Sequence record: MK295203
Origin: Escherichia phage vB_EcoM_005
Strand: one strand, 5' to 3'
DNA length: 64,000 bases
Made by a program: the position numbers and the translations under genes. Positions within the stretch are counted from its first letter, which is position 1; each line of letters starts with the position of its first letter. The notes beneath the pieces were generated by a model, which worked only from the letters and a program-made list of their open reading frames with translations, searched no databases and was not told the origin of the DNA. Below, one piece after another: positions 6,558-64,000 of the stretch.

Positions 6558-7139
6558 TCATTCATTTTCATGTTTGTGATAACGTGTTATAGCCGAACGA
6601 GTTGATTCAACACCACAGATAGGGCAAATCATCCTTGGCTGATTAATCTTTTTGCCTTTAGCCGGATGTTCTTTACCAAACATCGGATTACCTTCACCAG
6701 ACATAGCTTTGGCTTGGTCTGGTCGCTTACGTCCTTTTAGAGCTTTAGAATGTTCAGGCCTCTTTTTACCTAACCTACAATCTCTTTGTAGCTGTTTGGC
6801 ATGTTCACTCATTGGAATCCCTTTACGAGACATTCCAAAGAACCCGTCAGGCTGAGCTAATGACATATTTATATAGTTTTTAGATTTAACTACATTATAC
6901 TTTATTTGAAGCTCTTTCTCAGCTATACGAGCTTCTTTATCGGTTTCAAATAAAGATAAAATTCTGGTTTTGAAAAGGTGCGGATTTTCTTTACGTTCTA
7001 GATTCCAAATCTTTTTATATGCTTGGGATAATACAGAACCATTATATCCTTCTTTGAGAATCCTTTCAACGTATGTTGAGCCAATATAACGACGGGGTAG
7101 TTTAGACCCCGTGTATATGGTTAAGTAAGTACAATACAT
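6558..7139 (-). CDS. GIY-YIG homing endonuclease with C-terminal zinc finger
   Basis: TIYTGSKLPRRYIGSTY N-terminal motifs, repeated basic H-x-AK segments, C-terminal CPICG...H; free-standing between genes 20 and 19. Confidence 0.7.
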   Translation of the reverse strand: MYCTYLTIYTGSKLPRRYIGSTYVERILKEGYNGSVLSQAYKKIWNLERKENPHLFKTRILSLFETDKEARIAEKELQIKYNVVKSKNYINMSLAQPDGFFGMSRKGIPMSEHAKQLQRDCRLGKKRPEHSKALKGRKRPDQAKAMSGEGNPMFGKEHPAKGKKINQPRMICPICGVESTRSAITRYHKHENE

Positions 7140-7701: not shown

Positions 7702-8385
7702 TTAGTGTTTCCTATCATATTCTTCAATTAAATGGAATAGCATATCTAAATCTATACTATTTTTAGAATCTTTACTTCGATTCTTTTCCCAAGGAATCAT
7801 TTCTAGATTGCAAATGTGTCCTATTATTTCGGGAGGGACGCCATTTTCAAATCCATATTTGATAGATACCCTATGGTCTAATTGATAAGCTCCTTTAACA
7901 CCACATATCCCGCTTAGATGTCTATTTGGTAGATTATCAACTTCTTCTTTAAAAGTCTTATTAGTAAAAGACCTCACTGAATAATAATATTTATTACGTT
8001 CAGATTTGTTAGGATTCCATCTTCCGTTTTTAGGTCCTGAACAAGCTTCAATCTTTATACCTTTTTTAGACTTAGAAATTTTAGGCCCTTTGGTTTTACG
8101 GATTTTTATGCCTTCATCAGAATTCCAATATTCTTTTCTTGTTTCTGAATAGACTTCCCAACGATGCTCTTTACAGAACTTAGAATTGGTTTCATTAAGT
8201 CGCCCTTTTGTTACAGTATAATAAATGCCACATTTATCACATTTACACGTAACAGCCATTTTTCCAGGACAGTCTTCTAATTTTATTAAATGGGAGCTTC
8301 CACTTTTAACTTGATATCCAAGATTTTTAAAAGCAGAAACATTGCGATTCGTTATAGGTATTTCAAATAGAGTATTAGTAATCAT
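7702..8385 (-). CDS. HNH homing endonuclease (mob-like)
   Basis: C-terminal YQLDHRVSIKYGFENG...HICNLEMIPWEKNRSKD HNH motif, cysteine-rich N-terminus; inserted between genes 19 and 18. Confidence 0.7.
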   Translation of the reverse strand: MITNTLFEIPITNRNVSAFKNLGYQVKSGSSHLIKLEDCPGKMAVTCKCDKCGIYYTVTKGRLNETNSKFCKEHRWEVYSETRKEYWNSDEGIKIRKTKGPKISKSKKGIKIEACSGPKNGRWNPNKSERNKYYYSVRSFTNKTFKEEVDNLPNRHLSGICGVKGAYQLDHRVSIKYGFENGVPPEIIGHICNLEMIPWEKNRSKDSKNSIDLDMLFHLIEEYDRKH

Positions 8386-12745: not shown

Positions 12746-13608
12746 GGGTTTCTCCTTGGTGCTGGAGGCGCTGGCTCGACAGGCACTGGAATATCTTGTG
12801 AATATGTTTGAACGGAACTTCCATCCCATTCTGTTTGTTCTACACCTCTCGGAACCACTTCGCTATCAACCGATTCGAAATTACCTTCAGGAGCGAGTTC
12901 CTTTGAGTTAGCAAAGAAATCAAGATAAATGGTTTTAATTTCGCCTTCCATTTCTTTAACTGGAGGATATAACCACCCGTTAACCTCAAACATCATGGAC
13001 CATTCTAAACGACGACGAGAAGTGGTATCGCCTTCTAATTGTTCGTCCATTGCAATAGACTGGAACACAATACGAATATCACGGTCAAATTTAATCTCGT
13101 TTGTATAGAGTTCAGTGATTGTTGTATTAAAGTGAGGTTGGAAATAAGGCATAATCTGTTCCACAATTTGGAACATATCATCTTGGGTTCTAGTGTAAAT
13201 ACCCAGTTCGAAAATCATTTTAACCGGAGTAGGAGAATATTGGCTAACCCGTTTACGAGGGTCACCATTCTCAAATTGAATTTGTGTTCTGTTCTGAAGA
13301 GCTGTTTTGTATTGTGAGTTATAAAGCATATCAACCATTTGAAGGTTCATACGTGGAAGAACTGTTTCCACTTTAGCCTTTTGTTCAGCTCGTTCTTTAG
13401 GAGACGTATTGGGATTTGGAATATTCTGTACTGCCGTCCATTTGCCCAAATTTGCCATAAATCTTTCTTTAGAAGCATACGTGATAGGAACCTTAATAAA
13501 TTTAAGCCCTGTATCTTCTCTTTGACGTGCTACTTGAACATGGGAAAATAAATCACCCATCAAAACAATATAGCGACGTAGCGAACTATTATAAAAGTGA
13601 CCGAACAT
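12742..13608 (-). CDS. 15: tail sheath stabilizer/terminator protein gp15
   Basis: [13 protein letters not shown]...VPITYASKE... matches T4 gp15 N-terminus as recalled; 288 aa. Confidence 0.85.
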
Positions 13609-14195
13609 TACTCACCTCTCATTTTACAATTATCATTATGCCAACGATTTATAAGATGGTATCCTATCATCTTGTGGCAATGTGGACACTCTACTTTTCT
13701 CTTTGGTACACCTGTTTGGGCTTGTCCAAAGGATACGGTATGTTCTGCTGAAAGCTTTTTGCCTTTGTGGGTTTCACTGGCTCTCTTTTTAGCATACTCT
13801 CCGTGATGTTTACCAAAAAATGGATTCAATTCACCTATACGAGTTTTACCCCAGGCTGATTTAACCCTCTTCATTTCTATACGGGCTTCTTCGTATTTTA
13901 TTTTTAATTCTTCTTCGGATAAATTTAAATTTCTACGTTCAGAACTACTAAACATAATCCAAAAGGCTAAAATCATTTTAGGGTCTTTTGTTTTTGCTAA
14001 GATTGCATGCGCCTCTAGATGGTCTAAAACATCTATAGAAACTATATTTTCCGGCGTGTTTTCGTATTCTGGAAATAAAGACCTAGGGAGAATATGATGT
14101 TTTTCGGTGTATTCTGTTTTAGGTGGCTTGGAGACCACCGCCAGATATTCATCTGTCAAATCCCCAAGCCATAATCCTACTTTTTCTTCTATCAT
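13608..14195 (-). CDS. HNH homing endonuclease
   Basis: HHILPRSLFPEYENTPENIVSIDVLDHLEAH HNH motif and C-terminal CPHCH...C zinc finger; inserted between genes 15 and 14. Confidence 0.7.
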   Translation of the reverse strand: MIEEKVGLWLGDLTDEYLAVVSKPPKTEYTEKHHILPRSLFPEYENTPENIVSIDVLDHLEAHAILAKTKDPKMILAFWIMFSSSERRNLNLSEEELKIKYEEARIEMKRVKSAWGKTRIGELNPFFGKHHGEYAKKRASETHKGKKLSAEHTVSFGQAQTGVPKRKVECPHCHKMIGYHLINRWHNDNCKMRGE

Positions 14196-14204
14196 AGAAG
14201 TTAT

Positions 14205-14908
14205 TTAATCATCTAAAAAAGCATCATCAAATGCTGTAGGAGGAGCATCTTCTCCTCGTCCATTAATTACAACATAAGGATGTACGAATTCAGCCGCTTC
14301 GGCATTAATCTCATTGACCTCTTCGTATTGAATGTCGGAGATATCAGCCAACCCGTCGATATTCTTAACAGGCATTAAATCAAGCTCACTGAATTCAGGA
14401 ATATTAATACCTTCATTTCTCTGTAATTCAGGACGAAGTTCTTCACCATTGTAAATGAACTTGGTAGCGGTAATTCGACGCTGGACGTTAGCACCTACTT
14501 GATAGAATGGGTCGTAAGGTTGTACCCAGTTAATTTCGAATAGGCTTATTATCCATTGGGAAATAAATCAAGTCGCCTGAAACAGGTTCAGTGCCATTGC
14601 ATTGATGTTTAAAAAGGTTAGGGTTAATTGTGATTGTTACTTCATCATTAACCATCATACCGAACTTACTGAAAGCCTATTCGGTCATTGGCATTTAACA
14701 TATTCACGTGGTATATAATAAAGCTCAATACCACGCATTTGAATAGACTCAGCAACTAAAGCATCAGCCAATGTTTGGGTATTCTCATGCTTGTAATGGT
14801 CGCCATTGGGTCATTGACAAAGGGATTGAGAATTTCGGCTTCGTTCGTATTAGCGTAACCTGTATTATTTTCTAGTTTGGCGAAAAGACTAGAATCAAAT
14901 GTCGACAT
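14205..14908 (-). CDS. 14: neck protein gp14 (multiple frameshifts; not translatable as one ORF)
   Basis: gp14-like segments lie in three frames: [23 protein letters not shown]..., [64 protein letters not shown]...; span of 704 nt is not a multiple of 3. Confidence 0.7.
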
Positions 14909-15521
14909 AACTCCACTCCTTCCATTTAGGTTTATCATTCTTTATTCTATTAATAACTGCGCTTTTGACTATACCAAAATACTCGGCGCATTCTTTACCT
15001 GTCGAGAATACCATTTCTCCGACTCTAACTGCTCTGGCCGCAGGATTTTTACTACCGGTAAAATCTGGGTGTTTCACACGCGTCCACATTAATGCGGTAG
15101 ATTCTTTTCTACGCTTTAGCCCTTCTTCAGTCCATTCTCTTGATTTTGCCGCCTCTGACATTCTTTTTCTTGATTCTATAGAACGGGTTTTACCTATATT
15201 AGGGTTATCTTTAGGATTGTAATAAGAAGGACCACCTTGTCCTCCTTTTACCAAATTAACACACTGAGCAAAATCTTCTTTAAGAATATCGACTAAAAGT
15301 TCTTCGGCTTCCTTTAATAATTCCGGATTACCGAAATCTTTCGACCATAATACCTGTTTTATACAGTTTCGTCCATATTTTTTCTTAGCATTCGAAATAT
15401 ACGTTCCTGAGCCAACGTATGAATCCAGCTTTGGATTAGATTTATCCGAATGTCTTTTACCGCCATAAATTTTTAATCCGTCCGACGTTTCAAACTCAGT
15501 CACGTATAATCTATAAAACAT
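14895..15521 (-). CDS. GIY-YIG homing endonuclease inserted between genes 13 and 14
   Basis: [10 protein letters not shown]...YVGSG motifs, C-terminal HTH; 3' end overlaps gene 14 start; ORF track fuses it to an upstream gene-14 fragment (14895..15668). Confidence 0.75.
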
Positions 15522-15568
15522 AATTATCCAATTAAAATAGGTGTTGGTGGGTCGAGTAAATCTAATTC
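15519..15568. repeat. 50-bp direct repeat, copy 1 (copy of gene 13 3' end)
   Basis: Identical 50-mer CATAATTATCCAATTAAAATAGGTGTTGGTGGGTCGAGTAAATCTAATTC also at 15666-15715. Confidence 0.85.
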
Positions 15569-15572
15569 GAAA

Positions 15573-15668
15573 GTTGACGAAAGGGTTCATTATTTCAGTT
15601 TCGTTCGTGTTAGCATAGCCAGTATTATCTTCTAGCTTAGCGAATAAACTCGAATCGAAAGTAGCCAT
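15573..15668 (-). other. duplicated, diverged 5' fragment of gene 14 (32 codons)
   Basis: [32 protein letters not shown], about 78% nt identical to the real gene 14 start at 14908; reads in frame into the HEG. Confidence 0.6.
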
Positions 15669-15715: not shown

Positions 15716-16839
15716 CTCGCGAAGTCGTTCTTTTTCTAAACGAGCTTCTTCAATCAATCGAATAGCCATCTACAGTGGTTCCACCTGCAAGTTGCATGCC
15801 TTGGTGTTTGGCTAAAATATTACCATTGACCTCTTTAACCAGTGCCGTAGCATAATCTTTAACCCAACGGTTATTATATGCACCAGTCTTGAAGACCAAG
15901 GTCCTCACCTACACGCATACCAGAAATACGACGTGATGGATTATCCCAAACAGCTCCAGGGCTCCATTCATTTTCGTCACACCCACCAGAGGCATATCCA
16001 TATCCTGCAGTATTTCCTACCATAGAATCAACCCCATTAAAAGAGCGAGTATAAACTTCAATTACAATAAAATCACCTTTAACAAAGTTACCCATTACCT
16101 TCAACTGTTCAGTGGCATCGTTATACCAATAATCAGGCAACAAAATATTACCATTGACTTCTTTAACCAATGCCGTCGCATAATCTTTGACCCAACGGTT
16201 ATTATATGAACCATCTTGCAAACCAAGGTCTTCACCTGCCCTCATACCTGAAATACGACGAGCCGGGTTATCCCAAATAGCTCCGGGGCTCCATTCATTT
16301 TCGTCACACCCACCAGAGGCATATCCATATCCTGCAGTATTTCCTACCATAGAATCAACCCCATTAAAAGTGGAACCAAAAGGTCTTGCATCATAGAACG
16401 ATATTGCATTAATTGTGTAAAATAACCAAGGTCGGCACCGAAGGCATTAGGCCCAAAGCTGTTACAAGAAGGTTCCAAGACCACCATTAATACCGGCCAA
16501 GCCTAATACAAAATCAGTAAACCATGGATAAGTCGCTTGGCCATCCATAGATGTTAAAGAACCCACGTTGGTTCTCAAAATTTGTGTTACCGCAAATATA
16601 TTACGGCCTTTAAGGTCAAATACACCGTTACGGAATTTTTCTTCGTCATCATGGCCTATATAAAAAGCCTGATAACCTTTGTTATAGCCGTTATAATGAT
16701 ACTCACCGTAGAGCTCCAGTGCGCGCTGGATGCAATCGTATACTTGGTCTGTAGTTACTTCAATATTTGTAATCGGTGCACCCAGGCGGCGCAGGATTGC
16801 GTCCTTGAGTTGCTTAGGGTTATATGATTCACTTGCCAT
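15671..16839 (-). CDS. 13: neck protein gp13 (frameshifts and internal tandem duplication)
   Basis: [23 protein letters not shown]... matches T4 gp13; frame breaks near 16465 and 15760; 1169-nt span is not a multiple of 3. Confidence 0.75.
15814..16043. repeat. tandem duplication inside gene 13, copy A (about 230 bp)
   Basis: About 90% identical to 16142-16370; both encode [43 protein letters not shown]. Confidence 0.8.
16142..16370. repeat. tandem duplication inside gene 13, copy B
   Basis: See copy A; separated from it by a 98-bp unique segment encoding [19 protein letters not shown]... Confidence 0.8.
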
Positions 16840-19116: not shown

Positions 19117-20445
19117 TTATTCTACTTTAATAATAAAAAGAACGGACATTGTCCATGGACGTGTTTCATTGGCAATAAGACCTTCACTATTAAGTGTGGT
19201 ATAGGTAGCGGTATTACCGAAGGCACCAGCATTATCATGTTCACCAAAACCACCAGCATGTTTATGATAACGTAATGCTTGGGCTTGAACGGAAGATTGT
19301 GGGAAAGAACCAACACCATTACCTAAACGGGCTTTACCTTTACCGTCTTCTCCTCGGTTACCGGCAATATGCGGGTTAACTTCGCCTTCAGAATATCCAC
19401 CGACCATGTTAGCGCCACGAGGATATAATCCACGGAAATCTGGAATAGCACCCCACCATCCCCGACAAATAGTACCTACAGGGACGCTATCTGATAATTG
19501 GTCGTGGGTAACAACATCAACACCATTACGACGTAATGCGCCATTAACGTTTAAAGTACCCCATATTTCACCACCTGAAGTAGAAATAACGTTGGCATTA
19601 TAAGCCAGTGCCGTATTACCATCACCTTGGCCCACAGTAGTAGATAATCGAACCAATCCAATACGACCAGTATTACCTGTACGAGCTAACAAAGAAGCAG
19701 GTGTAACAGCGGCAGTGTGGTCAGTACCATTAGATACCATATCCCAACCCGCGAGTTTAATAATACCGCTTCGTTCTTCGGTGGATGTTAATGTGGCTAA
19801 TCCTGCAGGAGAAATAGCGATACCTACAGAAAGATTTCCATTACCAACTTCGGCATTAGTCGCTAAACGAACCAAACCTTCATTTGTAGTCGTTGCCGTA
19901 GAATAAACCGGTAACGCTGCTGTCGCTGCACCAATTGCTTGCGATACTTTAAGTGGGGTCATTGCGGTGGTATCATCGGTACCAGCTAATGCAGCAGGTG
20001 TAGTTGAAATCTTGATAACGCCTGTGGCGTTCTCTGTTGATAAACGGTTCTCAAATGTATAATCCATTACCGCTTTCAAAGAGGTTGCTACGATTGCAGC
20101 CTGGGGCTCTGTGCCTGCTATGGCTTCAGCGTTAGTAGCGTAACGAGTGATACCTACATAAGTTTCTGTTGCCTGAGTAGGAATATCTAAACGGGCTTTT
20201 AAAGTTGCTGGAGTCACTGCACTATAAGCGTCCAATCCGTCCATTACTTCTTGTGTGGTGGCAAGACGAATAATACCTTGGGATGTTTCTGTGGCTGAAG
20301 GAACATTACCTGTGACGCCGATTAATGAAATAGTTGCCAATGCTTCTTGAACATTAGTAATATCAGGCGGGAAATTCGACCCAGTAGGGTCGAATGATTT
20401 GAATTCCGATTTATCACTAATGTGTTTTAGTGTGTTTGTTGACAT
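19117..20445 (-). CDS. 12: short tail fiber protein gp12
   Basis: ...FDPTGSNFPPDITNVQ...MTPLK...YHKHAGGFGEHDNAGAFGNT...NETRPW...IIKVE matches T4 gp12 hallmarks; 442 aa. Confidence 0.85.
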   Translation of the reverse strand: MSTNTLKHISDKSEFKSFDPTGSNFPPDITNVQEALATISLIGVTGNVPSATETSQGIIRLATTQEVMDGLDAYSAVTPATLKARLDIPTQATETYVGITRYATNAEAIAGTEPQAAIVATSLKAVMDYTFENRLSTENATGVIKISTTPAALAGTDDTTAMTPLKVSQAIGAATAALPVYSTATTTNEGLVRLATNAEVGNGNLSVGIAISPAGLATLTSTEERSGIIKLAGWDMVSNGTDHTAAVTPASLLARTGNTGRIGLVRLSTTVGQGDGNTALAYNANVISTSGGEIWGTLNVNGALRRNGVDVVTHDQLSDSVPVGTICRGWWGAIPDFRGLYPRGANMVGGYSEGEVNPHIAGNRGEDGKGKARLGNGVGSFPQSSVQAQALRYHKHAGGFGEHDNAGAFGNTATYTTLNSEGLIANETRPWTMSVLFIIKVE

Positions 20446-21004
20446 TAATATAATCTCTTATAGTAATATAAAGGAATCGTGCCGTTAACTGTACCACCTG
20501 CTAACGATTGGGTAGAGTTACCTAAGTATTCCCACTTACCGTATCCAGCCCTTGGCTGTTGGACTATAGTATGGGAAATTGTACAACCCGGGCAATAGCG
20601 TCTAAAAACACATCATTTACTTTAGATGCAACCAATACAGATGAATCGCCAACTAAGACCTCTACAGGAAGTCCAAACACTTTAATAATAACCGGGTCGC
20701 CAAGTTCACCGCCCGAAGAAATAGAACCGGTAAATGTAATTTTATCAGATTGCTGAATAAATCCAGGTGCTCTGTTTTCTGTGGTAATAATAACAGAGTT
20801 CACAGGAAGCTCTGCTCTAAATGCAATATCATCTATTGCACTTTGAACCGTAGGAAAATAAACACCCTTCTGGGTTTGGTTTGCAGAAGGACCACCGATA
20901 GGTCGTTGGTCAGCGACAGCAGTAGGCTTGTCACTAGTGTAAGATAATTCCAAATAATCGGCTAAGCGGGATTTTAACCCGCTTTTCATTTCAGTTAAAG
21001 TCAT
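20445..21004 (-). CDS. 11: baseplate wedge protein gp11 (frame broken near 3' end)
   Basis: 146-aa ORF (20564..21004) plus C-terminal 33 codons (...GYGKWEYLGNSTQSLAGG...YYYKRLY) in another frame ending at gene 12 ATG. Confidence 0.75.
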
Positions 21005-22716
21005 TATGCAATCCTCAGATAAGCCGGTCCTTGTGAATCAGGGTCAACTAAACATCCACCTACAAAAATAGGGCCATCGTTATCAGCAATAAGGACTTTA
21101 TCATCGGTATTAAGTTCAGGGATATTCTCATATTTCAAATTAGCCACATGAGCACCACCGGTACCACCAGCAGTTGACTGTGGAATACCAGAAGAATCCA
21201 GATCGTTATTATTTGCATTAAACAAAGAAGCCGCGTCAGGAGACCAACCTACCAAGAACACATCAGATAAACGCTTCCATGAACCAAAGCCCATATAAGT
21301 TTTAGGGTTATTAGGGTTCACCGTGTTCTCGTAGATAGTTCCTATAGGGTAGATTAAATCAAAAAATGTTGCTGCTGTGTCTATTGTAATATTAGACGAG
21401 GCGACCGGCTCAACGTTAGGTGCAAAAGGATTATCTACATCAGTAATACGAACCTGGCCTGTTATATCAATCGATGGACCCTTAGAAATATAGATGTTGT
21501 TGGTATAATCCAAAATCTCATCAATTTCCATGGTGGTACCGATATCATTATTGTACCAAATTACTGTAAGAATATCGCCATGTTCAAAGTTACGTCCAAA
21601 TTCGATGGATTCAATCTTGTCTTCAGGAGTCAAATTAAAAATATAGTCTGATTTAGATTGAGTCCATTGACCACCGGCATTAAAACACTCGGTAGCAGTA
21701 CGACCATCAGCACCTTCACAATAAAACGAAGGAAGTCCAGCTGTACCTGCTTGATGAAGTAATGTGCTATTAAGCATAACTTGACAAGCATTTGGGTTGA
21801 TAGGGCTGTTAACAGAAATATTCAAATCAGCGGCTGATATAACATGCGAAGTATTCAAATCTCCGACGAAAGAAGAACCAGGAACAGAAACGTTTTTAGT
21901 CAATTCTGAACTTTGGATTGTTATATCACGGCGGTTATAAGAACTACGCCATTGAGCAAGCCCGTCATTATATGATTTGATAATAACAGTATCACCCGCT
22001 TCACAAGGATATTTTAAACGGATGTCTTTACCATTCAAGGCCACCAATTCACCTGGTTGAGCACCTGGAGAACCAAACTCTGCGGTAGCAGCATCAAAAA
22101 TATCATCAATACCGTAGAACAAATTGTTACCACGTTGTGAAACGCTTAAACTTGCTACGTTATAAGAAAGACCCGGGAAAACATCTAGAAAGTCTGTTTG
22201 ACCTTCAGTGGCAATAAACTGCTTAGTTGCTACAGTAGCAAGGTCGTTATTTGGAATACGGTTTACTTGCTTATTTTCAACATATTCCCAACGTCCTGGA
22301 GCACAATAAACTAATTCAAGGTCAGAGAAGTTGCGAGCAATTTCTACTTGAGTAGCTGAACCCTTAATGGTATCACCTGTGGCAGGGATTAGGGTTACAG
22401 GGTTAGCTTGCCATGAGGAATACACGTCACGTACACGGATAACAAAGTTATATTCTTCAGGGGAGCCTTTAGGAAGCTGAACGTTAATACGCCCACCTTG
22501 AGTATTAAGGGTATAGCTATGACCCATTACAGCGTTCAACAAAGCGCCATCTGCGGTAGAATGCTGTTTCCAAGCGCCTGCGGCATGTGGGTTGTTGCCA
22601 TCACCTAATTGGTAATAAAGCTCATTGAAGTTGTTATTAATTTTAAGACCACCTGCACGCAGGTAATCACCGGACCCGTCATCAACAGCGGAACCTACTT
22701 TTAAGTCTTGTTTCAT
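21004..22716 (-). CDS. 10: baseplate wedge protein gp10
   Basis: MKQDLKVGSAVDDGSGDYLRAGGLKINNNF...DLELVYCAPGRWEYV...NPNNPKTYMGFGSWK matches T4 gp10; 570 aa versus about 602. Confidence 0.9.
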   Translation of the reverse strand: MKQDLKVGSAVDDGSGDYLRAGGLKINNNFNELYYQLGDGNNPHAAGAWKQHSTADGALLNAVMGHSYTLNTQGGRINVQLPKGSPEEYNFVIRVRDVYSSWQANPVTLIPATGDTIKGSATQVEIARNFSDLELVYCAPGRWEYVENKQVNRIPNNDLATVATKQFIATEGQTDFLDVFPGLSYNVASLSVSQRGNNLFYGIDDIFDAATAEFGSPGAQPGELVALNGKDIRLKYPCEAGDTVIIKSYNDGLAQWRSSYNRRDITIQSSELTKNVSVPGSSFVGDLNTSHVISAADLNISVNSPINPNACQVMLNSTLLHQAGTAGLPSFYCEGADGRTATECFNAGGQWTQSKSDYIFNLTPEDKIESIEFGRNFEHGDILTVIWYNNDIGTTMEIDEILDYTNNIYISKGPSIDITGQVRITDVDNPFAPNVEPVASSNITIDTAATFFDLIYPIGTIYENTVNPNNPKTYMGFGSWKRLSDVFLVGWSPDAASLFNANNNDLDSSGIPQSTAGGTGGAHVANLKYENIPELNTDDKVLIADNDGPIFVGGCLVDPDSQGPAYLRIA

Positions 22717-23477
22717 TATACTGGAACTCCAATAGTTTGGGTTTCTACGACCTTAATTGCAAGCCTCATAGGATTGACAGAAGAAGCGGTCGCGATAATA
22801 TAGTTTGATGTATCGAATTTAAAATCTAGGGAATAAATTTCGTCATCATCTGAAGTTTGTCCACGTTTAATAACAGCGTATTCGGTGGAATAAATCTTTC
22901 TAGCTTGGTTGTCGATAAACACAAGGTATTCTGAAGCTTTGTAAATGGTTTCGTTGGCATTCACTGCCGTAACTAAAAGTTTGACCAATGAATACTGGCC
23001 AGAATAAACCACTGGAATATCACGAGCTACAGAAGATATATTATATGTCTTATTTAATGGAACTCGTTTATCACCAAACATACTTTCAATTGAATAATCC
23101 CATACTGCAACGCCGTTTGTATCCGATACACACCATAAAAGAACTCGTGTATAAGGTGTTACGATACGCAAAGTCGAAGTTGAATGGCTTGCAAAAGTAT
23201 CCAATATACGGATTTCAAGATAATTAGTGGAAGAAATACTCCCGTTAGAGTTGATAATCTCGATTCCTTCACCGACTGCACCTTTTACAGTGGTTAATAG
23301 TAATTTCTGACCTGTTAATTCGCCTGTTAAAGCAGTTTTACGTTGGTCACCGAAAGTATTATAAATGTTGTTTAAGTCAGTGTTCAGTTTAACACCGCCG
23401 TCATAAAGAATGTCGCCGGTGCTGGCATTACCAATTTCACCGACGTCAATTAGTTCTTTACCAGTTTGCTTAATCAT
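22716..23477 (-). CDS. 9: baseplate wedge / long tail fiber attachment protein gp9
   Basis: ...KELIDVGEIGNASTGDILYDGG...FGDQRK...FINSNGSIS... like T4 gp9; 253 aa versus about 288. Confidence 0.85.
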   Translation of the reverse strand: MIKQTGKELIDVGEIGNASTGDILYDGGVKLNTDLNNIYNTFGDQRKTALTGELTGQKLLLTTVKGAVGEGIEIINSNGSISSTNYLEIRILDTFASHSTSTLRIVTPYTRVLLWCVSDTNGVAVWDYSIESMFGDKRVPLNKTYNISSVARDIPVVYSGQYSLVKLLVTAVNANETIYKASEYLVFIDNQARKIYSTEYAVIKRGQTSDDDEIYSLDFKFDTSNYIIATASSVNPMRLAIKVVETQTIGVPV

Positions 23478-29980: not shown

Positions 29981-31376
29981 CAATAGTATATTGACCGGAT
30001 GCAATTGAACTCATAGTCGACATAGTTTCAGACCAATTGCCTGCAACAGTCATATCAACGTTTCCATTTACGGACCATTTAACGTTTCCATTTACTGTAT
30101 AGTCATGGTTGCCTTCAACTAATGTTTTTGCATCGCCTTTAACAGTTATATCAGCATTACCCTCGACAAGAATTGTTACGTTTCCTTTAACAATAAGGGT
30201 CCCATCACCTTCTACGGTTTTAGTTTCATTACCACGAATATGATATCCGTCTGCTACTGTCTTGGAAGTTTTGCGACCATCAGGAGCAACTTCTTCATAA
30301 CTACCTGTAGGATGGATTAAACGATAACGTTCTTGCCCTGGAGTGTTATCAAATTCTTGGATATGCCCGCCTTCAGTCTGCATGGTTTGGACATATGGGT
30401 ATTCACCTTTATAACTAGAATCAGGCTCTTTAAAAAGAATCCTTGTATCTTCTGGAGTCCATGGGTCGGCAGGGTCTGAATTTTTAGGGGCTGCAAAGGT
30501 TTGAATCATTCTATACGAACGCCCTTTAAATGACCTTTCTTTAGGGGCCATAATACCGTATGATTCCATGTTACCTGTAAGGATAATCATTGATACCCTT
30601 GATGCACGACCTTTAGTTTGGTTAAACCACACAGAATCACGAGCGGCATCAAATGCTTTCTTATAATCTCCGGCTAACATTGCAGCGAGCATGGTTCTAA
30701 ATTTAGCCAGTCCACCCAATCCCATTTGGAAAGCCATGTTTTCAAGAGCCATTTGTCTTGAACGGTTTTCTTTATTGTAAACTGGCCCTACAACACTATG
30801 CCGACCTATATCGCTTTGGACTTTTTTAAGGTCTTCTTGGAATAATTTAGAAGCCTCGTCCATTGATATTGCACCTGGGTTACCTTTAACTTCTCGTCCT
30901 ACCTGATTAGATAATATTTTGTTTATTCGGTTCATATCTCTAATAGGTTGCGGTGTGATAAGGTGGCCTATACCTATAGTAGGATAACCTTCGGTGTCCC
31001 AATAGTTAATACCCACATCAGTGTTTGCATCTTGTATTACGTTAGAAGTGGCATCATATCCAACTTCACCGCCTCGGTTTAGTGCTGCAGCATCATTACC
31101 TAAATAAAGTGGATATTGACCTGTTGGGTCGCTAAAACCTTCATTAGGATTAGCCTTTTGTCTTGAAGCGGAACCATATGTACCGAGGACAAGCCCGTTT
31201 AATTTCCACTTATCAAGAAAGTGCCCATAAGTACGAAGGCCTTTTACAGGACCTTGGACCTTTTCGTAAGGATGCAAGCCCCAGACACGAACTCGAACGC
31301 GTCCTTGTTGGAGTGGGTCCATACGGTCTTCAACCACCCCTACGAACCAACTGACATTATCAGACATGTTAATCAT
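29955..31376 (-). CDS. 5: baseplate hub / tail-associated lysozyme gp5
   Basis: N-terminal ...WFVGVVEDRMDPLQQGRVRVRV, central T4-lysozyme-like domain (GINYWDTEGYPTIGIGHLI), C-terminal VxGNxxxxV beta-helix repeats. Confidence 0.9.
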   Translation of the reverse strand: MINMSDNVSWFVGVVEDRMDPLQQGRVRVRVWGLHPYEKVQGPVKGLRTYGHFLDKWKLNGLVLGTYGSASRQKANPNEGFSDPTGQYPLYLGNDAAALNRGGEVGYDATSNVIQDANTDVGINYWDTEGYPTIGIGHLITPQPIRDMNRINKILSNQVGREVKGNPGAISMDEASKLFQEDLKKVQSDIGRHSVVGPVYNKENRSRQMALENMAFQMGLGGLAKFRTMLAAMLAGDYKKAFDAARDSVWFNQTKGRASRVSMIILTGNMESYGIMAPKERSFKGRSYRMIQTFAAPKNSDPADPWTPEDTRILFKEPDSSYKGEYPYVQTMQTEGGHIQEFDNTPGQERYRLIHPTGSYEEVAPDGRKTSKTVADGYHIRGNETKTVEGDGTLIVKGNVTILVEGNADITVKGDAKTLVEGNHDYTVNGNVKWSVNGNVDMTVAGNWSETMSTMSSIASGQYTIDGSRIDIG

Positions 31377-42954: not shown

Positions 42955-43818
42955 ATGATGTTAGTTATTGGTTCTCGTGCACTGCACCACGCTGGTCTGA
43001 TTGAAAGTAAGCATATCGAAAATTCTGATTGGGATTTCATTGCCGACCAAGGTTCATGGAACCATTTTAAAGCTCGGATGTTTGGTGCCCATGTTTCTGT
43101 GGATAATCCTGATGTCCAGGCTTTTAAATGCATGTACAACGGTAAAGAAACCTATTTTGAAGCATATATCGTTCGTGCTCTGACTAACGTACGAGAAATT
43201 ACCGGCGAGCTTCAAGACGAAGATTTCACCTCAAGTTATCGTCTCCTGAAATATGCCGAAAATCATATTAAAAAGGACCGTCTTACAGGTTTCTATTGGG
43301 CTACGCCTGATATCTGTCTGGCTATCAAAACCTCTCATCGTTTCCTGAAGAATAATCCTTTCTTCTTGAAAACTATGTCCCACATCAAATACCTTCGTAA
43401 TAAAGGTACCACCTTGAATGAAGAACTCCAGGAAATTATGCTGCAACGTCAAAAAGAAACGTTGAGCTATTCCCATCCTAAATTGGATGTAAACAAATCA
43501 TCGTTCTTTAATGATACCATGGAGAAGTTCGAGGCTTTGCCTGAAGCTATTAAATTGGCTGGTGTGTATGAAGAAACCTGTGTCCTGGCACTAGAACGTT
43601 CACAGGTTCCTAATGACTTCAATATTTCACCATCATTAAGTTTCTATATGGCTCTTGAGAAAGTGTGTACCTCAATCACTTCAGGTTGGTTCCGCACTTA
43701 TGCATGGGAAAACTACCAAGCTGTGGTTAATATGTACAAGACTTTAGGTGAAAGTGACTACATTGAACGATTTAAACGTAATCAACATCTTATTAAACCT
43801 TTCAAAAAGGCTGAGTAA
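42955..43818 (+). CDS. hypothetical protein (287 aa), possible nucleotidyltransferase-like N-terminus
   Basis: Internal ATGATG start after GAGGAAAA; N-terminal LVIGSRALHH...SDWDF loosely resembles a GS...DxD motif. Confidence 0.5.
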   Translation: MMLVIGSRALHHAGLIESKHIENSDWDFIADQGSWNHFKARMFGAHVSVDNPDVQAFKCMYNGKETYFEAYIVRALTNVREITGELQDEDFTSSYRLLKYAENHIKKDRLTGFYWATPDICLAIKTSHRFLKNNPFFLKTMSHIKYLRNKGTTLNEELQEIMLQRQKETLSYSHPKLDVNKSSFFNDTMEKFEALPEAIKLAGVYEETCVLALERSQVPNDFNISPSLSFYMALEKVCTSITSGWFRTYAWENYQAVVNMYKTLGESDYIERFKRNQHLIKPFKKAE

Positions 43819-44468
43819 TGGGACGGCCTCTAAAAGATTTAACCGGACAGGTTATAAATGGTATTAAATTTTTATCGGTGGCCTATAAAGCCACCGGATC
43901 GCCAACCAAGTGGCTTTTATTGTGCCATTGCGGTGAAGAATTCGTTACCACCGCCTCTAGAATAAAAACAGGAAAAACAAAATCATGCGGCTGTGAAAGA
44001 TACCATTATTCCTTTATAAAGAATAGGTATACATATTCCTCATATTCTGCTATGATTGCTAGATGTACAGACCCTAAACATAAAGCCTATCCCGCCTACG
44101 GTGGTAATGGTATAGTTGTTTGTGACGAGTGGCTTCCTAAAGGAAAGAAAGGGTATTTAAAATTTGTCGAGGATATGGGCGAGAGACCTAAAGGGACTTC
44201 AATAAATCGAATAGGTTCTGTTAAAAGGTATAGCAAAGAAACTTGTGAGTGGGCTCCATTTACAATGCAATCATTTGACCAAAGAACGCGTCATGATTCA
44301 CCGGGTCCTATTTCAGGAGTTGTATATAGAAAAGATAGAAATAAATGGGTAGCTTCTATAACAGTAGAAGGCGAAGCCATAGGGCTATATTATGGTGATA
44401 CTGAAAGCGAAGCGATAGAGGCTAGAAAACAAGCTGAACTTAAATATTTTGGAAGATTTAAGTCATAA
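43818..44468 (+). CDS. AP2-domain DNA-binding protein (homing-endonuclease-like)
   Basis: C-terminal ...GVVYRKDRNKWVASITVEGEAIGLYYGDTESEAIEARKQAELKYFG AP2-type motif; Cys-rich N-terminus. Confidence 0.55.
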   Translation: MGRPLKDLTGQVINGIKFLSVAYKATGSPTKWLLLCHCGEEFVTTASRIKTGKTKSCGCERYHYSFIKNRYTYSSYSAMIARCTDPKHKAYPAYGGNGIVVCDEWLPKGKKGYLKFVEDMGERPKGTSINRIGSVKRYSKETCEWAPFTMQSFDQRTRHDSPGPISGVVYRKDRNKWVASITVEGEAIGLYYGDTESEAIEARKQAELKYFGRFKS

Positions 44469-44766: not shown

Positions 44767-45357
44767 ATGAACGGTCCAAAAACTTTTAATTCTCAAGCTC
44801 GTGCAGTCGGTGGTTTTGCTCAAGATATCAGTAATGATATGATTAAAAATGAGCCTATGTTCTTTAATTGCGATGCTTATTTTGCTCATAAACACGGCGG
44901 TCCTATTACTCGTAGCTTTATTGAAAACCTGCCTGAAGATTGGCAATGTGGCCCTGATATTGTATTTGATTCCCGTGTACACATGTTAATGCCTGGCTGG
45001 TACCCTGCAATTCCAGGCTTCCACCATGATGATGTACCACGTCCGGATATTCCGGTCGGCCAACACTTTATTACCGCAGGGCAGCCTGATTATGATAATC
45101 CTCGTTACCATTCTGAACATATTCTTGGTCTTGTTAACGCTGGAATTGAGTCCAATGAATTAACCAAGTGGGATGCTCCTGACCGCACGTTGCTCCAGTT
45201 TGATTGGCAGACGTGGCATACCGGTTCTCGTGCAGTAAGTAATGGTTGGCGCTGGTTTGGTCGTGTCTCTCGTAATACTGACCGTGTTAAAAAGATTACT
45301 AATGAAATCCGTGTTAATGCTCAAGTTTATCTGGAATTCCCTATGGAGGGCTGGTAA
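44767..45357 (+). CDS. hypothetical protein (196 aa), possible Fe/2OG-oxygenase-like
   Basis: FHHDD...WHTGSR...RWFGRVSR resembles HxD...H...R arrangement; unverified. Confidence 0.5.
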   Translation: MNGPKTFNSQARAVGGFAQDISNDMIKNEPMFFNCDAYFAHKHGGPITRSFIENLPEDWQCGPDIVFDSRVHMLMPGWYPAIPGFHHDDVPRPDIPVGQHFITAGQPDYDNPRYHSEHILGLVNAGIESNELTKWDAPDRTLLQFDWQTWHTGSRAVSNGWRWFGRVSRNTDRVKKITNEIRVNAQVYLEFPMEGW

Positions 45358-46649: not shown

Positions 46650-47081
46650 ATGGATATTTTTGATATGTTACGTCAAGACGAAGGTCTTGATTTAAATCTT
46701 TATAAAGACACTGAAGGTTATTGGACTATTGGTATTGGCCAATTGATTACTAAGAACCCTTCTAAAGATGTTGCTCGTGCTGAACTTGATAAGCTTATGG
46801 GTCGAGTTTGTAATGGTCGTATTACTATGGCTGAAGCTGAACAACTCTTTAACCGATCGGTTGAAAATGCTCGTAGAGCTATTCTGCGTAATCCTAAATT
46901 GAAACCTGTTTATGATGTACTGGACGAAGTTCGTCGTTGTGCTTTAATTAACATGGTCTTCCAAATGGGTGAAGCAGGCGTAGCAGGGTTCACTAACTCT
47001 TTACGTATGCTCCAACAGAAACGTTGGAACGATGCGGCAGTTAACCTGGTTTATCGCAGAGAATGTAATTCCTGCATCTAA
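46650..47081 (+). CDS. e: lysozyme (endolysin) e, C-terminally truncated
   Basis: [33 protein letters not shown]... matches T4 lysozyme to ...AAVNL then diverges and stops (143 aa versus 164). Confidence 0.85.
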
Positions 47082-51821: not shown

Positions 51822-52079
51822 ATGATTAAGCAGATGACTATAGCGCTTATGTTGATCGCTCCGGGAGTATTAGCGTCACAAGTTGATGATAGCAATAATT
51901 CAATTGTCGAGTATGCTACCCGTACAGTCCGAATGAAAGAGAAAACTCTTTCTAAAAGATACGAGCAACGTCTAAACGTTACTGAATGTATTCCATCTGA
52001 TAAAAAGTACAAAGAAATGTGCGCGTCTATGGTAGACAGACTCGTTGATTCTTACAATCGAGGATTAAACTCTAAATGA
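51822..52079 (+). CDS. small secreted protein (85 aa)
   Basis: Signal-peptide-like N-terminus MIKQMTIALMLIAPGVLAS. Confidence 0.5.
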   Translation: MIKQMTIALMLIAPGVLASQVDDSNNSIVEYATRTVRMKEKTLSKRYEQRLNVTECIPSDKKYKEMCASMVDRLVDSYNRGLNSK

Positions 52080-53871: not shown

Positions 53872-54186
53872 ATGGATATTTTCCGTACAGCGGCTTGTAT
53901 CCTTATGGCGGGATGTTTAAGCCCTACAGTTTCACTAGCAAATGATACCAATGATAAATTGATGGATGCGTTTGCTAGTAGTGCGATGCCTGTTTATGCG
54001 CAAATGAGTAGACCTAGCGTAAAGGCCTCCGAAGACTATTGGGCCTATGTTACGGCTTCCTGGAAGATTTCAAGTTGTCGGACTATAGAAGCGTGCTCAA
54101 TTGAAGGTCGTGCCATCGGAGAGCGTTATGCAAAACTATTCAGCCCATTTAGAAACCAAAAGCTATGCAAGACACAAAGCGTATGA
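53872..54186 (+). CDS. rI: RI-like lysis-inhibition regulator candidate (secreted / lipoprotein)
   Basis: Signal peptide with lipobox-like LMAGC; C-terminal ...SSCRTIEACSIEGRAIGERYAKL resembles T4 RI as recalled; located after tk. Confidence 0.45.
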   Translation: MDIFRTAACILMAGCLSPTVSLANDTNDKLMDAFASSAMPVYAQMSRPSVKASEDYWAYVTASWKISSCRTIEACSIEGRAIGERYAKLFSPFRNQKLCKTQSV

Positions 54187-54956: not shown

Positions 54957-55057
54957 TGGCTGATGGCACAGGAGCATGAGATGATTTACTATCTTGAACC
55001 TTGGGCTTGGCTAACTTTGTTCTAGAACCTGAGACATTAGCCGGTTCTGGTGATGAT

Positions 55058-56207: not shown

Positions 56208-57115
56208 GAACAGTTATGAAAGGCTACTTCGGTAGCCACCTTTATGGAACAAGTACTCCGGAATCTGATGTCGATTTTAAAGAAATCTTTGTTCCACATC
56301 CGCGTGATATTCTGTTAGGTACGGCTATGAACCATACCAACCTGAATACGAATAACACAGCTTCTAAAAACACTAAAGATGATGTTGACCACGAGCTTTA
56401 CAGCCTGAAATATTTCTTTAAACTAGCGGCTGAAGGCGAAACCGTTGCTCTGGATATGCTCCACACTCCACCTGAATTGGTGGTTAAATCTGATTTACCT
56501 GATGTATGGAAATTTATCCAGGATAACCGTTCTCGGTTCTATACAACCAACATGAAAGCCTATTTAGGGTATGTCCGTAAGCAAGCTTCTAAGTATGGTG
56601 TTAAAGGTTCTCGGGTAGAAGATATCAAACACAGACTCCCTGAAAACGAGTTCTGTGAATGGGTATTCCATAACCACGAGAAAACAGGTCCTCAAACGTT
56701 CTATACTGTTCTTGGACGTAAGTACCAAACCACCTTGTCTTTAATCGAGCTCAAGCAATCTCTGAATAAGCTCGATGCGGAATATGGTGAACGTGCTCGT
56801 AAGGCTGAAGCCAATGAAGGTATTGACTGGAAAGCTCTGAGCCATGCTTATCGGGCTGGATACCAGTTGAAGGAAATCTATCAAACTGGTGACCTCCAAT
56901 ATCCTTTACGTACAGCACCGTTTATCCTTGAAATCAAACAAGGGCTTCATGCTTTTAAAGATGTACAGGCCGAACTTGAAGCTATCGTTGATGAAGTCGA
57001 AACTAATGCTATCTGGGCCGCTAAGAATGGTATGCCTGAGAAGGTAGACATGAAGTTCTGGGACAAGTTCGTCGAAGAGGTTTACCTAGAAAACCATAAC
57101 TCGTATTATAAATGA
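56204..57115 (+). CDS. Pol-beta-superfamily nucleotidyltransferase-like protein (303 aa)
   Basis: N-terminal GYFGSHLYGTSTPESDVD fits the G[SG]...DxD NTase signature. Confidence 0.6.
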   Translation: MRTVMKGYFGSHLYGTSTPESDVDFKEIFVPHPRDILLGTAMNHTNLNTNNTASKNTKDDVDHELYSLKYFFKLAAEGETVALDMLHTPPELVVKSDLPDVWKFIQDNRSRFYTTNMKAYLGYVRKQASKYGVKGSRVEDIKHRLPENEFCEWVFHNHEKTGPQTFYTVLGRKYQTTLSLIELKQSLNKLDAEYGERARKAEANEGIDWKALSHAYRAGYQLKEIYQTGDLQYPLRTAPFILEIKQGLHAFKDVQAELEAIVDEVETNAIWAAKNGMPEKVDMKFWDKFVEEVYLENHNSYYK

Positions 57116-60166: not shown

Positions 60167-60949
60167 ATGAACATTAAAACACGTAAAGAATATTCTCGAT
60201 ATGATTTTGATACCACACGTCGTATCGCTATTGACCGTCTGGCAGACTTTGGCCATATTTGTAATGGTAATTATACTTATGGTGTAGGTCGTAAAGGAAC
60301 TTATATTGGTTCTTTGAACGATTATTGCCGTTGCCCGGCCCACCTGTTTGGTGCAACATTGCGAGCTAATATCAAAGACCTCTTGGCTACAGCAGGGCGT
60401 ATTTCTACGGTTCCTGTTAATATCAAAAATATTAATTTTACAGCTCGTAACCTGGTCATTAATATTTTGGCAGACGGTATTCAAGTTCGTTTCCGTCCTA
60501 CCTCAAAAGGTAATAAAGCCCTTCGTGAAGCATTTGAAACCGTTAATGTTAAACTAACTCGCGAATATCTTTTGTCTTACGCCCCTTATCAATCCCAACA
60601 AAAGGAACCACAAATGGAACGTCGTATCTCTATCTCTACATCTGCGGTATCATGTGACAGCGTAGGCCAGTATGCAGCCTATGACAAATTCAAAACCACC
60701 GCTGTGCCGAGTCCATTCAATTCCAAACCGTATCATTGGAAAATTGCACCTGATAATTCTATGGTGGTTACTAACCCTACGATGAAACCTATCGAGAAGT
60801 ATCATGAGGACTACATCCAGGAATCAATCCACCGTTTAAACGGTCAAATCGAAGATGAGAAAAAGAGTATCCAAGACGTATTGATTCGTATCAAGAACAT
60901 GGAACTCCAGCGTGACAAGCTCCGCGCGGCAGTATTAGCTCTAAAATAA
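60167..60949 (+). CDS. hypothetical protein (260 aa)
   Basis: TAATATG coupling with previous ORF; track starts at upstream ATG 60143. Confidence 0.5.
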   Translation: MNIKTRKEYSRYDFDTTRRIAIDRLADFGHICNGNYTYGVGRKGTYIGSLNDYCRCPAHLFGATLRANIKDLLATAGRISTVPVNIKNINFTARNLVINILADGIQVRFRPTSKGNKALREAFETVNVKLTREYLLSYAPYQSQQKEPQMERRISISTSAVSCDSVGQYAAYDKFKTTAVPSPFNSKPYHWKIAPDNSMVVTNPTMKPIEKYHEDYIQESIHRLNGQIEDEKKSIQDVLIRIKNMELQRDKLRAAVLALK

Positions 60950-61008: not shown

Positions 61009-61920
61009 ATGACTCGTACTGAATACATCAATGCCTTTACTACGTATATCACTGCTGCCACCCCTCCATTAACCCCATACGAGGTAATAGTTTCTAATAT
61101 CAATAAATGGGTAGACCAAATTGATGAAGCACTATCTGGTTGTTTCAAAGATGAAATCGAAAAGATTGCGAGTCGTTTGTTTATTTCTGATATCACGGAA
61201 ACTTTTAAAGGTTCTCGTTTGCTTTCACGCCTGGTCAATAAGGACATCCTTTCAGAGTTTGGCAAAGAGAAACATCCAGGTTCCAGCCATGTTGTTAGCT
61301 ATCAATGGTTTGGTGACGTTTTAAAAAGCTATGTCAAAATTAAAGGTGCCGATCCTAGTGGCCTATTTCCACAACGTTGGGCTGGTGAATTTAAGGCTAA
61401 CTCCGCATTAATTCTAAAAGCAGCAACCAAAACCTTTGTAAAGGGTGATTGTCGTACTATCCACCCTATGGCTAATTGCATGATTAAAACAAACAGCTAT
61501 AAAGGGAAGGTACTTATTTCTATTATTTGGTCGCCTAGTCGGAAACCTAAAGAAGTTGAAGTTTCGAAATACCACGATATTTCCTACAATACCCTGAATA
61601 TGGTAGAACAGGCTTTAGCTTTGATGGATACAGTAGAGAAATATGAGATTCAAGAAATCAAACACCACTTAGGCTGGAAAGGATATGAAGTTTTAGTAAC
61701 AGTTCGCGAAATCAAATGCCCTGTTCCAAAAACCGACGCTGAAATTTATCAAGAAAAATGTGAGGAAATTGTGAACACTGATAAAGAGCCTGCAACCTTA
61801 GAAGACCTGATTGATGAGCTGAATAGCCCGAGGCTATTGGCCTGTGCACAAATTACTAAATCCAAGTTACCAGAAGTCGTTGCGGACCGTCTTGAACAGG
61901 CTCTGGAGCTGCTGAAATGA
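61009..61920 (+). CDS. hypothetical protein (303 aa)
   Basis: ATG after GAGGAG; track starts at 60949. Confidence 0.55.
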   Translation: MTRTEYINAFTTYITAATPPLTPYEVIVSNINKWVDQIDEALSGCFKDEIEKIASRLFISDITETFKGSRLLSRLVNKDILSEFGKEKHPGSSHVVSYQWFGDVLKSYVKIKGADPSGLFPQRWAGEFKANSALILKAATKTFVKGDCRTIHPMANCMIKTNSYKGKVLISIIWSPSRKPKEVEVSKYHDISYNTLNMVEQALALMDTVEKYEIQEIKHHLGWKGYEVLVTVREIKCPVPKTDAEIYQEKCEEIVNTDKEPATLEDLIDELNSPRLLACAQITKSKLPEVVADRLEQALELLK

Positions 61921-62249
61921 AACAACGTTTAGCTGAAGATATTGCTTCAACAACCAATACAGGTTTATTGGAATTTATTAAAGCCGAGGATGTTGAAGCT
62001 GAATTGGTTGGTAAGATTCATGGTGATGAGTATAGTGATGTCGTTAATTGGGACGCTGTGATGGCCATGGTTGAACGTCGTGAAAAAGCTTCTAAGAACG
62101 TTCCGAACTGTCCTATGTGTGGAACTGAACAGGTCCAGTTGGTTCAATGGCGGCATAATCCACTTCAGTATAAATGTCGCATGTGTAAACACAAATTTGA
62201 GCGAGACGAAAATGGCAAAGCGCAAAGAATATGTAGAGGCGGCCGATAA
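61917..62249 (+). CDS. zinc-ribbon-like protein (110 aa)
   Basis: CPMCG...CRMCKH four-Cys motif; ATGA overlap. Confidence 0.5.
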
Positions 62250-62449: not shown

Positions 62450-62614
62450 ATGGATGTGATGCCGGAAAAAGGTGTATTTGATGATGAGAAGATTGCTGAA
62501 CTCCTGGCTTCTCTTGGACGTGAATCTCAGGTAGGTTTGACTATGCCTCAGGTATTTGCTCCGGACGGAACTTCTATTGGTGGCTTTGACCAATTGCGAG
62601 CATATTTCAAATGA
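62450..62614 (+). CDS. nrdC: thioredoxin NrdC, C-terminal fragment only
   Basis: MDVMPEKGVFDDEKIAELLASLGRESQVGLTMPQVFAPDGTSIGGFDQLRAYFK matches the C-terminal part of T4 NrdC; N-terminal CxxC region absent. Confidence 0.6.
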   Translation: MDVMPEKGVFDDEKIAELLASLGRESQVGLTMPQVFAPDGTSIGGFDQLRAYFK

Positions 62615-62901
62615 TTGAATTAAATGAACAGACTATTTTTCTAGGTGATGGTACCGAAGATGACCTGGAATATAAACTATACGAATATATGGTTTGGCTG
62701 GCTAAAGCAGAAGGTATTGACTTTGCTGTAGCTCACCCGTATGGCGAGAACACCGTTGTAATCGGTGGCACTGCTTATGAAGTCCAATGGCAATACGTTG
62801 GGCTTGAATCCGAAGAATTTGAAGAAGATGAACACGGTGATTGGCACCCAGTCGGCCCTTGGTACTGGGAAGATGGTGAACCCGATTTTGAAGTAGCATA
62901 A
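62611..62901 (+). CDS. hypothetical acidic protein (96 aa)
   Basis: ATGA overlap; an open frame without start continues 62911..63044. Confidence 0.5.
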   Translation: MIELNEQTIFLGDGTEDDLEYKLYEYMVWLAKAEGIDFAVAHPYGENTVVIGGTAYEVQWQYVGLESEEFEEDEHGDWHPVGPWYWEDGEPDFEVA

Positions 62902-63257: not shown

Positions 63258-64000
63258 ATGCAAGATTTCGGACATTGGGCGGTATTTGAAGAAACCGATA
63301 TTAAAAACCATATTGGATTTGTATACGTAATCACTTTTGAAGATGGCAAAAAATATGTAGGTGCTAAAAAGATTTGGAAACGAATTAAAGCTGCACCTTG
63401 CACATTTAAACGCGGCCCTAAAAAAGGATTTGAAGAATCTGATTGGAAAACCTATACCTCATCATCTAATGAACTAAACGCAATGATAGAAAAGGGTATA
63501 AGTCCTAAAGAGTACCTTATTGTAGGATGGTATCCTACTTGGGGTAAAACTCTTATGGCAGAAATGGAAATGCAATTAGCCAATGATGTTTTACGAGACC
63601 CTATGTGGCTTAACAAGCAAATTGGCGGACATTTCAACCCTAACTGCTTTGACGATTTAACCGCTGACGAAGTTGGCAAGTATATTAAATCTGGGTGGCA
63701 ATTTGGTCGTTCTAAAACAGAAAAACATTCTGTTACCTATAATTGCTCTAAATTTACTATATGGGACTATCAAGAAAATAAAGCAGTGGAAGTTCTAAAT
63801 CAAAATGAGTTTGCTCGTAATAATGATTTAAGTAGCAACCATCTAACTAGACTACTTCAAGGAACTCTCGACCTTATTAAAGATCGCTGGGGACTTCCAC
63901 CAGATATTGCTCGTCAGCGTTATAAATTTCAGGACGTTTCTTCAGGAACAAAATTTTTATCTAATTCTGAGTTAGAAGAATTTTACGGTATGACTCGCGG
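63258..64000 (+). CDS. GIY-YIG homing endonuclease (3' end beyond window)
   Basis: MQDFGHWAVFEETDIKNHIGFVYVITFEDGKKYVGAKK... GIY-YIG motifs; no stop before window end, so absent from ORF track. Confidence 0.7.
   Translation, partial: MQDFGHWAVFEETDIKNHIGFVYVITFEDGKKYVGAKKIWKRIKAAPCTFKRGPKKGFEESDWKTYTSSSNELNAMIEKGISPKEYLIVGWYPTWGKTLMAEMEMQLANDVLRDPMWLNKQIGGHFNPNCFDDLTADEVGKYIKSGWQFGRSKTEKHSVTYNCSKFTIWDYQENKAVEVLNQNEFARNNDLSSNHLTRLLQGTLDLIKDRWGLPPDIARQRYKFQDVSSGTKFLSNSELEEFYGMTR

Follow-up and report, generated by a model that had tools for sequence, protein, structure and literature searches.

The C-terminal nrdC fragment in the Escherichia phage vB_EcoM_005 record is very probably a defect of the deposited sequence

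The DNA that was analysed (the window) is a stretch of 64,000 nt from the sequence record of Escherichia phage vB_EcoM_005 (MK295203), near the end of which lies an open reading frame (ORF) corresponding to part of nrdC. NrdC of phage T4 is a glutaredoxin-fold protein with a CxxC active site that serves the aerobic NrdAB ribonucleotide reductase of the phage as hydrogen donor, and its gene is dispensable in T4. In the window, the order of genes at the nrdC locus was the standard T-even arrangement, in which nrdC.2 precedes nrdC.1, and the native nrdC start codon, the nrdC stop codon and both neighbours of the gene were intact. The following features were assigned at the locus:

61917-62249, plus strand: nrdC.2 homologue, 110 aa, with a C-terminal CxxC...CxxC zinc-ribbon-like segment
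62212-62448, plus strand: nrdC.1 homologue, 78 aa, intact, directly upstream of nrdC (phrog_2052, 2.4e-31)
62450-62614, plus strand: truncated nrdC ORF, 54 aa, which keeps residues 1 and 35-87 of an 87-aa NrdC and has the substitution N35D at the junction
62452-62453: dropout junction in nrdC, where 99 nt of all relatives are missing; G62453, the first base 3' of it, is not shared by any of the four aligned relatives
62611-62901, plus strand: gp49.3-like ORF, 96 aa, whose start codon overlaps the stop of nrdC (ATGA), as it does in relatives (phrog_4203)
63258-64000, plus strand, running off the end of the window: SegE-like GIY-YIG homing endonuclease (PF19835, 2.2e-34; phrog_7363, 1.7e-127)

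The first-pass annotation of this DNA had placed the end of the upstream ORF 2 nt before the nrdC start codon; the nrdC.1 stop ended at position 62448, with one base between it and the ATG at 62450. The same one-base spacing was found in the related phages AnYang, Bp7, SHP1 and IME540. The Dhakavirus NrdC proteins (JS98, YP_001595211.1; JS10, Bp7, AnYang and SHP1; 87 aa) are encoded at the same locus, in the order nrdC.2, nrdC.1, nrdC, an optional small ORF and 49.3, and the start context of these orthologues, TAAAATG, was that of the window. An additional loss of 166 nt was located at about 62895. Regarding the flanking genes, Pfam zinc-ribbon hits to the nrdC.2 homologue were weak and below threshold; this protein also matched phrog_9774, labelled as an NrdC-like thioredoxin, a label that seems to derive from the name of the locus rather than from the fold. 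The SegE-like gene lay about 650 nt downstream of nrdC, and the Bp7 match reached into this region, where Bp7 has an ORF, whereas the AnYang match stopped short of it.

As written in the record, nrdC is an ATG-initiated ORF on the plus strand that ends in a TGA stop and encodes the 54-aa product MDVMPEKGVFDDEKIAELLASLGRESQVGLTMPQVFAPDGTSIGGFDQLRAYFK. Residues 2-54 of this product aligned without gaps to residues 35-87 of the 87-aa T4 NrdC (PDB 1AAZ and 1ABA; E = 4.9e-26), which bore out the earlier reading of the gene as a C-terminal fragment. The cis-Pro (TMPQ) and GGFDQL motifs were present in the aligned C-terminal part, and both TMPQVF and GGFDQL were shared with T4 NrdC (PDB 1AAZ, 1ABA, 1DE1 and 1DE2). 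In a search of 5.8 billion proteins, the nearest relatives were the 87-aa NrdC proteins of Dhakaviruses, with 91 to 94% identity over the 54 residues; 94% identity was reached with the C-terminal 54 aa of Dhakavirus NrdC (E = 1.7e-25), JS10 NrdC being among these matches. What the record lacks are the counterparts of T4 NrdC residues 2-34, with Cys14-x-x-Cys17, a segment that in the T4 structure also includes beta1-alpha1-beta2 of the glutaredoxin fold. When the window was aligned at the DNA level with AnYang, Bp7, SHP1 and IME540, the sequences were collinear apart from exactly 99 nt, corresponding to codons 2-34, that were absent directly 3' of the nrdC ATG; all of the Dhakavirus orthologues carry these 99 nt. 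Thus, the absence of the CxxC-bearing N-terminal part, as proposed in the first-pass annotation, was confirmed. The ORF contains no cysteines, where the relatives carry C14-V-F-C17. The first codon kept after the ATG was GAT (Asp) in the window and AAT or AAC (Asn) in all four aligned relatives. An alternative placement of the gap, as 69 nt plus 30 nt, also summed to 99.

These features bear on the assignment of the ORF to the T4-type NrdC/glutaredoxin family (PF00462). C-terminal homology and position at the locus both agreed with membership; the CxxC site and a complete glutaredoxin domain were lacking. A Pfam search with the 54-aa ORF recovered no family at E values up to 1, and PF00462 was found in 22 of the 23 other homologues retrieved. 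The phrog_22 profile ("thioredoxin domain") matched the ORF only in part, over profile positions 104-145 of 162. Since the missing family features are best explained by a defect in the sequence, they are uninformative on the real NrdC of this phage. The missing 5' portion, which on the first-pass annotation might have lain elsewhere in the genome, was not found in the 64-kb window, as tblastn and blastn-short searches with the N-terminal 35 aa and the 99 nt returned only noise (best tblastn E = 0.9). The 162 nt of nrdC that were retained differed from SHP1 at three positions, about the same level as the flanking DNA, and there was no sign of decay.

The truncated form appeared to be unique to this record. 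All 46 phage records that covered a 91-nt query spanning the nrdC junction did so in two pieces spanning 190 nt (91 plus 99), that is, they contained the full gene, and none of the BLAST matches in the phage collection extended across the junction. For the best relative, SHP1, the match took in 90 of the 91 bases and was 100% identical, the unmatched base being most simply G62453. The other homologues retrieved (n = 23) were all longer than 54 aa; 20 were 87 aa long and the remaining three were 89, 91 and 73 aa, the 73-aa homologue being located on a contig of 831 bp. A 20-mer spanning the junction had no matches in the viral and genome contig collections. Two metagenome matches of the 20-mer had unrelated flanks and were dismissed as chance. 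The 54-aa protein was identical to AZV01036.1 and YP_010100589.1, "thioredoxin [Escherichia phage vB_EcoM_005]," and occurred on one contig only; a look-up of contigs encoding the 54-aa protein returned no entry. A 305-aa JGI protein that shares a 90%-identity cluster with the 54-aa NrdC was rejected as a relative. From its sequence, we presume it to resemble a branched-chain aminotransferase, and its presence in the cluster looks like an error in the protein collection.

The loss of 99 nt was not confined to nrdC. The whole window was compared with AnYang by BLAST, and nearly every break between BLAST segments had 0 to 3 nt in the window opposite about 99 to 102 nt in AnYang. Exact realignment against AnYang and JS98 then showed that the window lacked exactly 99 nt at 17 sites relative to AnYang and at 15 sites relative to JS98, making 19 distinct sites, and every one of these losses was in frame. 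There were no 99-nt insertions in the window relative to AnYang or JS98. When AnYang and JS98 were compared with each other over the same region as a control, nine indels of at least 20 nt were found, and none of the nine was 99 nt long. The sites other than nrdC, all of them placed by realignment, were as follows:

3002-3003: gene 22, prohead scaffold; 238 aa vs 271; identical to AZV00940.1
19202-19203: gene 12 (by realignment)
19463-19464: gene 12 (by realignment)
21017-21018: 3' end of gene 10 (by realignment)
23299-23300: gene 9; 253 aa vs 286; identical to AZV00961.1
23984-23985: gene 8; 301 aa vs 334; identical to AZV00962.1
27471-27472: gene 6 (by realignment)
31004-31005: gene 5, baseplate hub/tail lysozyme (by realignment)
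31230-31231: gene 5, baseplate hub/tail lysozyme (by realignment)
45142-45143: JS98 orf120 homologue (by realignment)
47049-47050: lysozyme gene e, 3' end removed
51927-51928: vs gene; 85 aa vs 118
54137-54138: rI/rI.-1 boundary; rI is short of 7 aa at the C terminus and rI.-1 of 29 aa at the N terminus
55015-55016: AnYang ORF036 homologue (by realignment)
56613-56614: nrdC.11; 303 aa vs 336; identical to AZV01026.1
59012-59013: nrdC.8 (by realignment)
60541-60542: JS98 orf86 homologue (by realignment)
61883-61884: nrdC.4 (by realignment)

The junctions themselves were then compared at 17 sites, with one 99-nt gap per site in its optimal placement. Directly 3' of the junction, the base differed from the reference at 11 of the 17 sites and was usually G in the window; directly 5' of the junction, it differed at none. 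Since the divergence around the junctions was only about 2 to 10%, this one-sided mismatch indicated that the lesions are better described as the replacement of 100 nt by one unreliable base. In nrdC, the odd base was G62453, which turns Asn35 into Asp. Microhomology at the 17 junctions amounted to only 0 to 3 nt, and at nrdC no direct repeats or microhomology that might explain a natural deletion were found beyond the 0 to 3 nt of alignment ambiguity. No common motif was seen at the ends of the dropped segments. A fixed 100-nt grid, such as might result from binned masking, was considered and rejected, since the spacings between losses (261, 226 and 685 nt, each plus 99) were not multiples of 100.

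Several of the lesions fell in genes for essential structural proteins. The 99-nt losses left one 33-residue hole each in gp22, gp6, gp8 and gp9 and two each in gp5 and gp12, and they removed the C termini of gp10 and of lysozyme. Further lesions were of other sizes. Gene 11 (20448-21004) was split by a frameshifting loss of 106 nt at 20590; a loss of 173 nt at 27276 removed the end of gp6 and codons 1-44 of gp7, together with the intergenic region; gene 5 lacked another 123 nt at 30242; and the gene for the tail sheath protein gp18 lacked 147 nt. In the major capsid gene (gp23; 1400-2825, minus strand), 133 nt were lost near 1527, with a frameshift after about residue 433, such that the product in the record has 462 aa with an unrelated tail vs the 519 aa of the normal protein. 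This loss would be lethal if real and is therefore a further sign that the record is faulty. A different kind of lesion was found in the gene for the neck protein:

15814-16370, minus strand: scrambled gene 13 (neck protein), with two 92%-identical alleles of one 227-nt stretch in tandem

The two copies of the gene 13 stretch occupied positions 15814-16043 and 16142-16370. Between them lay about 98 nt that were then missing after the second copy. The tandem alleles suggest that two genotypes were co-assembled and that the assembly graph was threaded wrongly. Taken together, the lesions in gp23, gp11, gp7, gp13 and the other genes describe a phage that would be unable to form particles or to be propagated, and yet the phage was grown and sequenced.

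The same lesions were found in the public databases. The shortened gp8, gp9, gp22 and NrdC.11 were exactly the NCBI proteins of vB_EcoM_005, each of them forming a singleton cluster at 90% identity. This indicated that the lesions belong to the public record and were not introduced downstream of it. The public record of vB_EcoM_005 is 155,101 bp long, compared to 168 to 172 kb in related Dhakaviruses, and is thus about 15 kb short. If the density of 99-nt losses in the window holds for the whole record, about 45 of them would be expected in it. The record serves as exemplar for the species Dhakavirus ecom005 and is included in RefSeq (YP_ accessions). A literature search on vB_EcoM_005 yielded no paper on its genome; the phage was mentioned only in passing, in a paper on another subject.

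On these grounds, the nrdC fragment is very probably a defect of the deposited sequence, arising in assembly or editing, and not a feature of the phage. This reading follows from the recurrence of the 99-nt loss at the same size and from the damage that it does to essential capsid and baseplate genes. Constant-size lesions recurred in the window without relation to gene boundaries and were absent from the control pair, and several were incompatible with a viable phage (the gp23 and gp11 frameshifts, the lost gp7 start and the scrambled gp13). A technical cause is what we infer from this pattern: losses of one constant size recur, their junctions share a signature, essential genes are damaged, and the lesions stand in the public record. 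The phage itself most likely carries an ordinary 87-aa NrdC, encoded by a complete gene of 264 nt. The first-pass annotation therefore stands as a description, since the ORF does comprise the C-terminal two-thirds of NrdC without the CxxC site and does abut nrdC.1. The biology that it implied, a gene surviving as a fragment, was not supported, given that 18 other losses share its size and signature, several of them in essential structural genes, and that gp23 and gp11 are frameshifted and gp13 is scrambled.

Very probably, the sequence lost 99-nt blocks in numerous positions during the building of the record or, equivalently, 100 nt were each time replaced by one unreliable base, and one of the lost blocks covered nrdC codons 2-34. 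This block starts directly 3' of the ATG and its length is divisible by three, so that a tidy 54-codon ORF remains, and it was annotated as thioredoxin. Incorrect merging at contig joins or k-mer overlaps is a known type of artefact in short-read assemblies, for which 99 or 100 is a typical maximal k. Our best guess is that contigs of a de Bruijn graph that overlapped by about 99 nt were merged incorrectly, the overlap having been cut from each of the two, and that the sample would have contained two related genotypes. Gene 13 would fit such a process; its layout can be written as X-Y-X'-Z, where X and X' would be the alleles and Y a shared segment of about 98 nt, not found again after X'. The series resembles artefacts of this type in its constant loss near the maximal k (99/100), in the unreliable base at the junction, in the tandem alleles of gene 13 and in a genome shorter than those of its relatives. 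It is unlike the simplest version in that the junction mismatch is strictly one-sided; a simple double-trim model predicts variant bases on both sides, but mismatches were seen only on the 3' side.

Some properties of the nrdC lesion count against an artefact. The deletion starts exactly after the start codon and is in frame, which makes it look "designed" (although the whole series of 99-nt losses is in frame), and since nrdC is not essential in T4, a real deletion would be tolerated. We therefore considered the possibility that codons 2-34 were genuinely deleted in frame in a recent event, so that the thioredoxin was lost and an inactive remnant ORF was left, still translationally coupled to its neighbours. 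The preserved ATG, stop and ATGA overlap with the next gene are in keeping with such a deletion, the lack of further decay in the remnant would fit a recent one, and related Dhakaviruses have a second glutaredoxin gene (AnYang ORF016) some 2 kb further downstream. If the deletion were genuine, deoxynucleoside triphosphates (dNTPs) could be made by way of this second phage glutaredoxin-like gene or by host redoxins together with the host reductase. A natural deletion would, however, be expected to be a lone event, or one unlike the other differences in kind, in an otherwise intact genome and to share its junction with another isolate or assembly. What was found were 19 exact 99-nt losses in 64 kb, in a record that as a whole is not a viable genome, and a junction that occurred in 0 of the 46 phage records and in none of the other phages, viral contigs, genomes or metagenome contigs in the collections searched. 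Neither microhomology nor a repeat accounts for a natural event, and both the 99-nt size and the odd junction base are those of the 18 other losses, many of them in essential genes, such that a genuine deletion would need to have matched the artefact series in both exact size and signature by pure coincidence. We therefore regard a genuine recent deletion as unlikely. A further reading, which we regard as very unlikely, is that the nrdC deletion is genuine in an otherwise faulty record. The redox-active N-terminal third would then have been lost naturally, a 54-aa remnant would still be expressed, and ribonucleotide reductase would depend on a different redoxin, of phage or host origin.

We also considered a split or relocated gene, whose CxxC part would be encoded elsewhere in the genome, set apart by a mobile element for instance, and would act together with the C-terminal part, or else a 54-aa piece with its own function. 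Genomes of T4-type phages are rich in homing endonucleases, which are able to split genes, and the presence of the SegE-like GIY-YIG gene 650 nt downstream of nrdC speaks for this idea, as does the fact that the ORF keeps its start codon and ribosome-binding context. Against it, neither the N-terminal 35 aa nor the missing 99 nt could be located in the 64-kb window, and nrdC.1 abuts the ATG exactly as in the relatives, which indicates that nothing has been inserted. The piece also lacks both beta1-alpha1-beta2 and the active site, and it has no Pfam hit at E values up to 1. This alternative was thus judged to be extremely unlikely, and a defect of the deposited sequence remained the preferred explanation of the nrdC fragment.

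As biology, the fragment is unimportant, there being no good reason to suppose that the phage is without a functional NrdC. As a matter of data quality, it warns of corruption at many sites in the RefSeq exemplar of a species, with dozens of 33-residue holes and with core genes that are frameshifted in several instances. As singleton clusters, the damaged proteins have spread to nr and UniRef, and users of the record would be misled in comparative genomics, in the inference of gene loss, in structure prediction and in the setting of taxonomic thresholds.

The window also differed from AnYang by several insertions of about 600 to 730 nt, mostly among structural genes (680-1339, plus strand; 6558-7139, 7702-8385, 13608-14195 and 14895-15668, minus strand; and 43818-44468, plus strand). 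The ORF at 680-1339 was weakly GIY-YIG-like, and that at 14895-15668 was chimeric, with gp14 residues 1-33 joined to a protein of the I-TevI-type DNA-binding/NUMOD3 kind. No Pfam hits were obtained for the ORFs in the remaining insertions (6558-7139, 7702-8385, 13608-14195 and 43818-44468). We considered whether these insertions of roughly 650 nt might be artefacts as well. This was disfavoured, since they contain unique ORFs, some of which are recognisable as homing endonucleases; the insertions are probably real and probably represent free-standing homing endonucleases.
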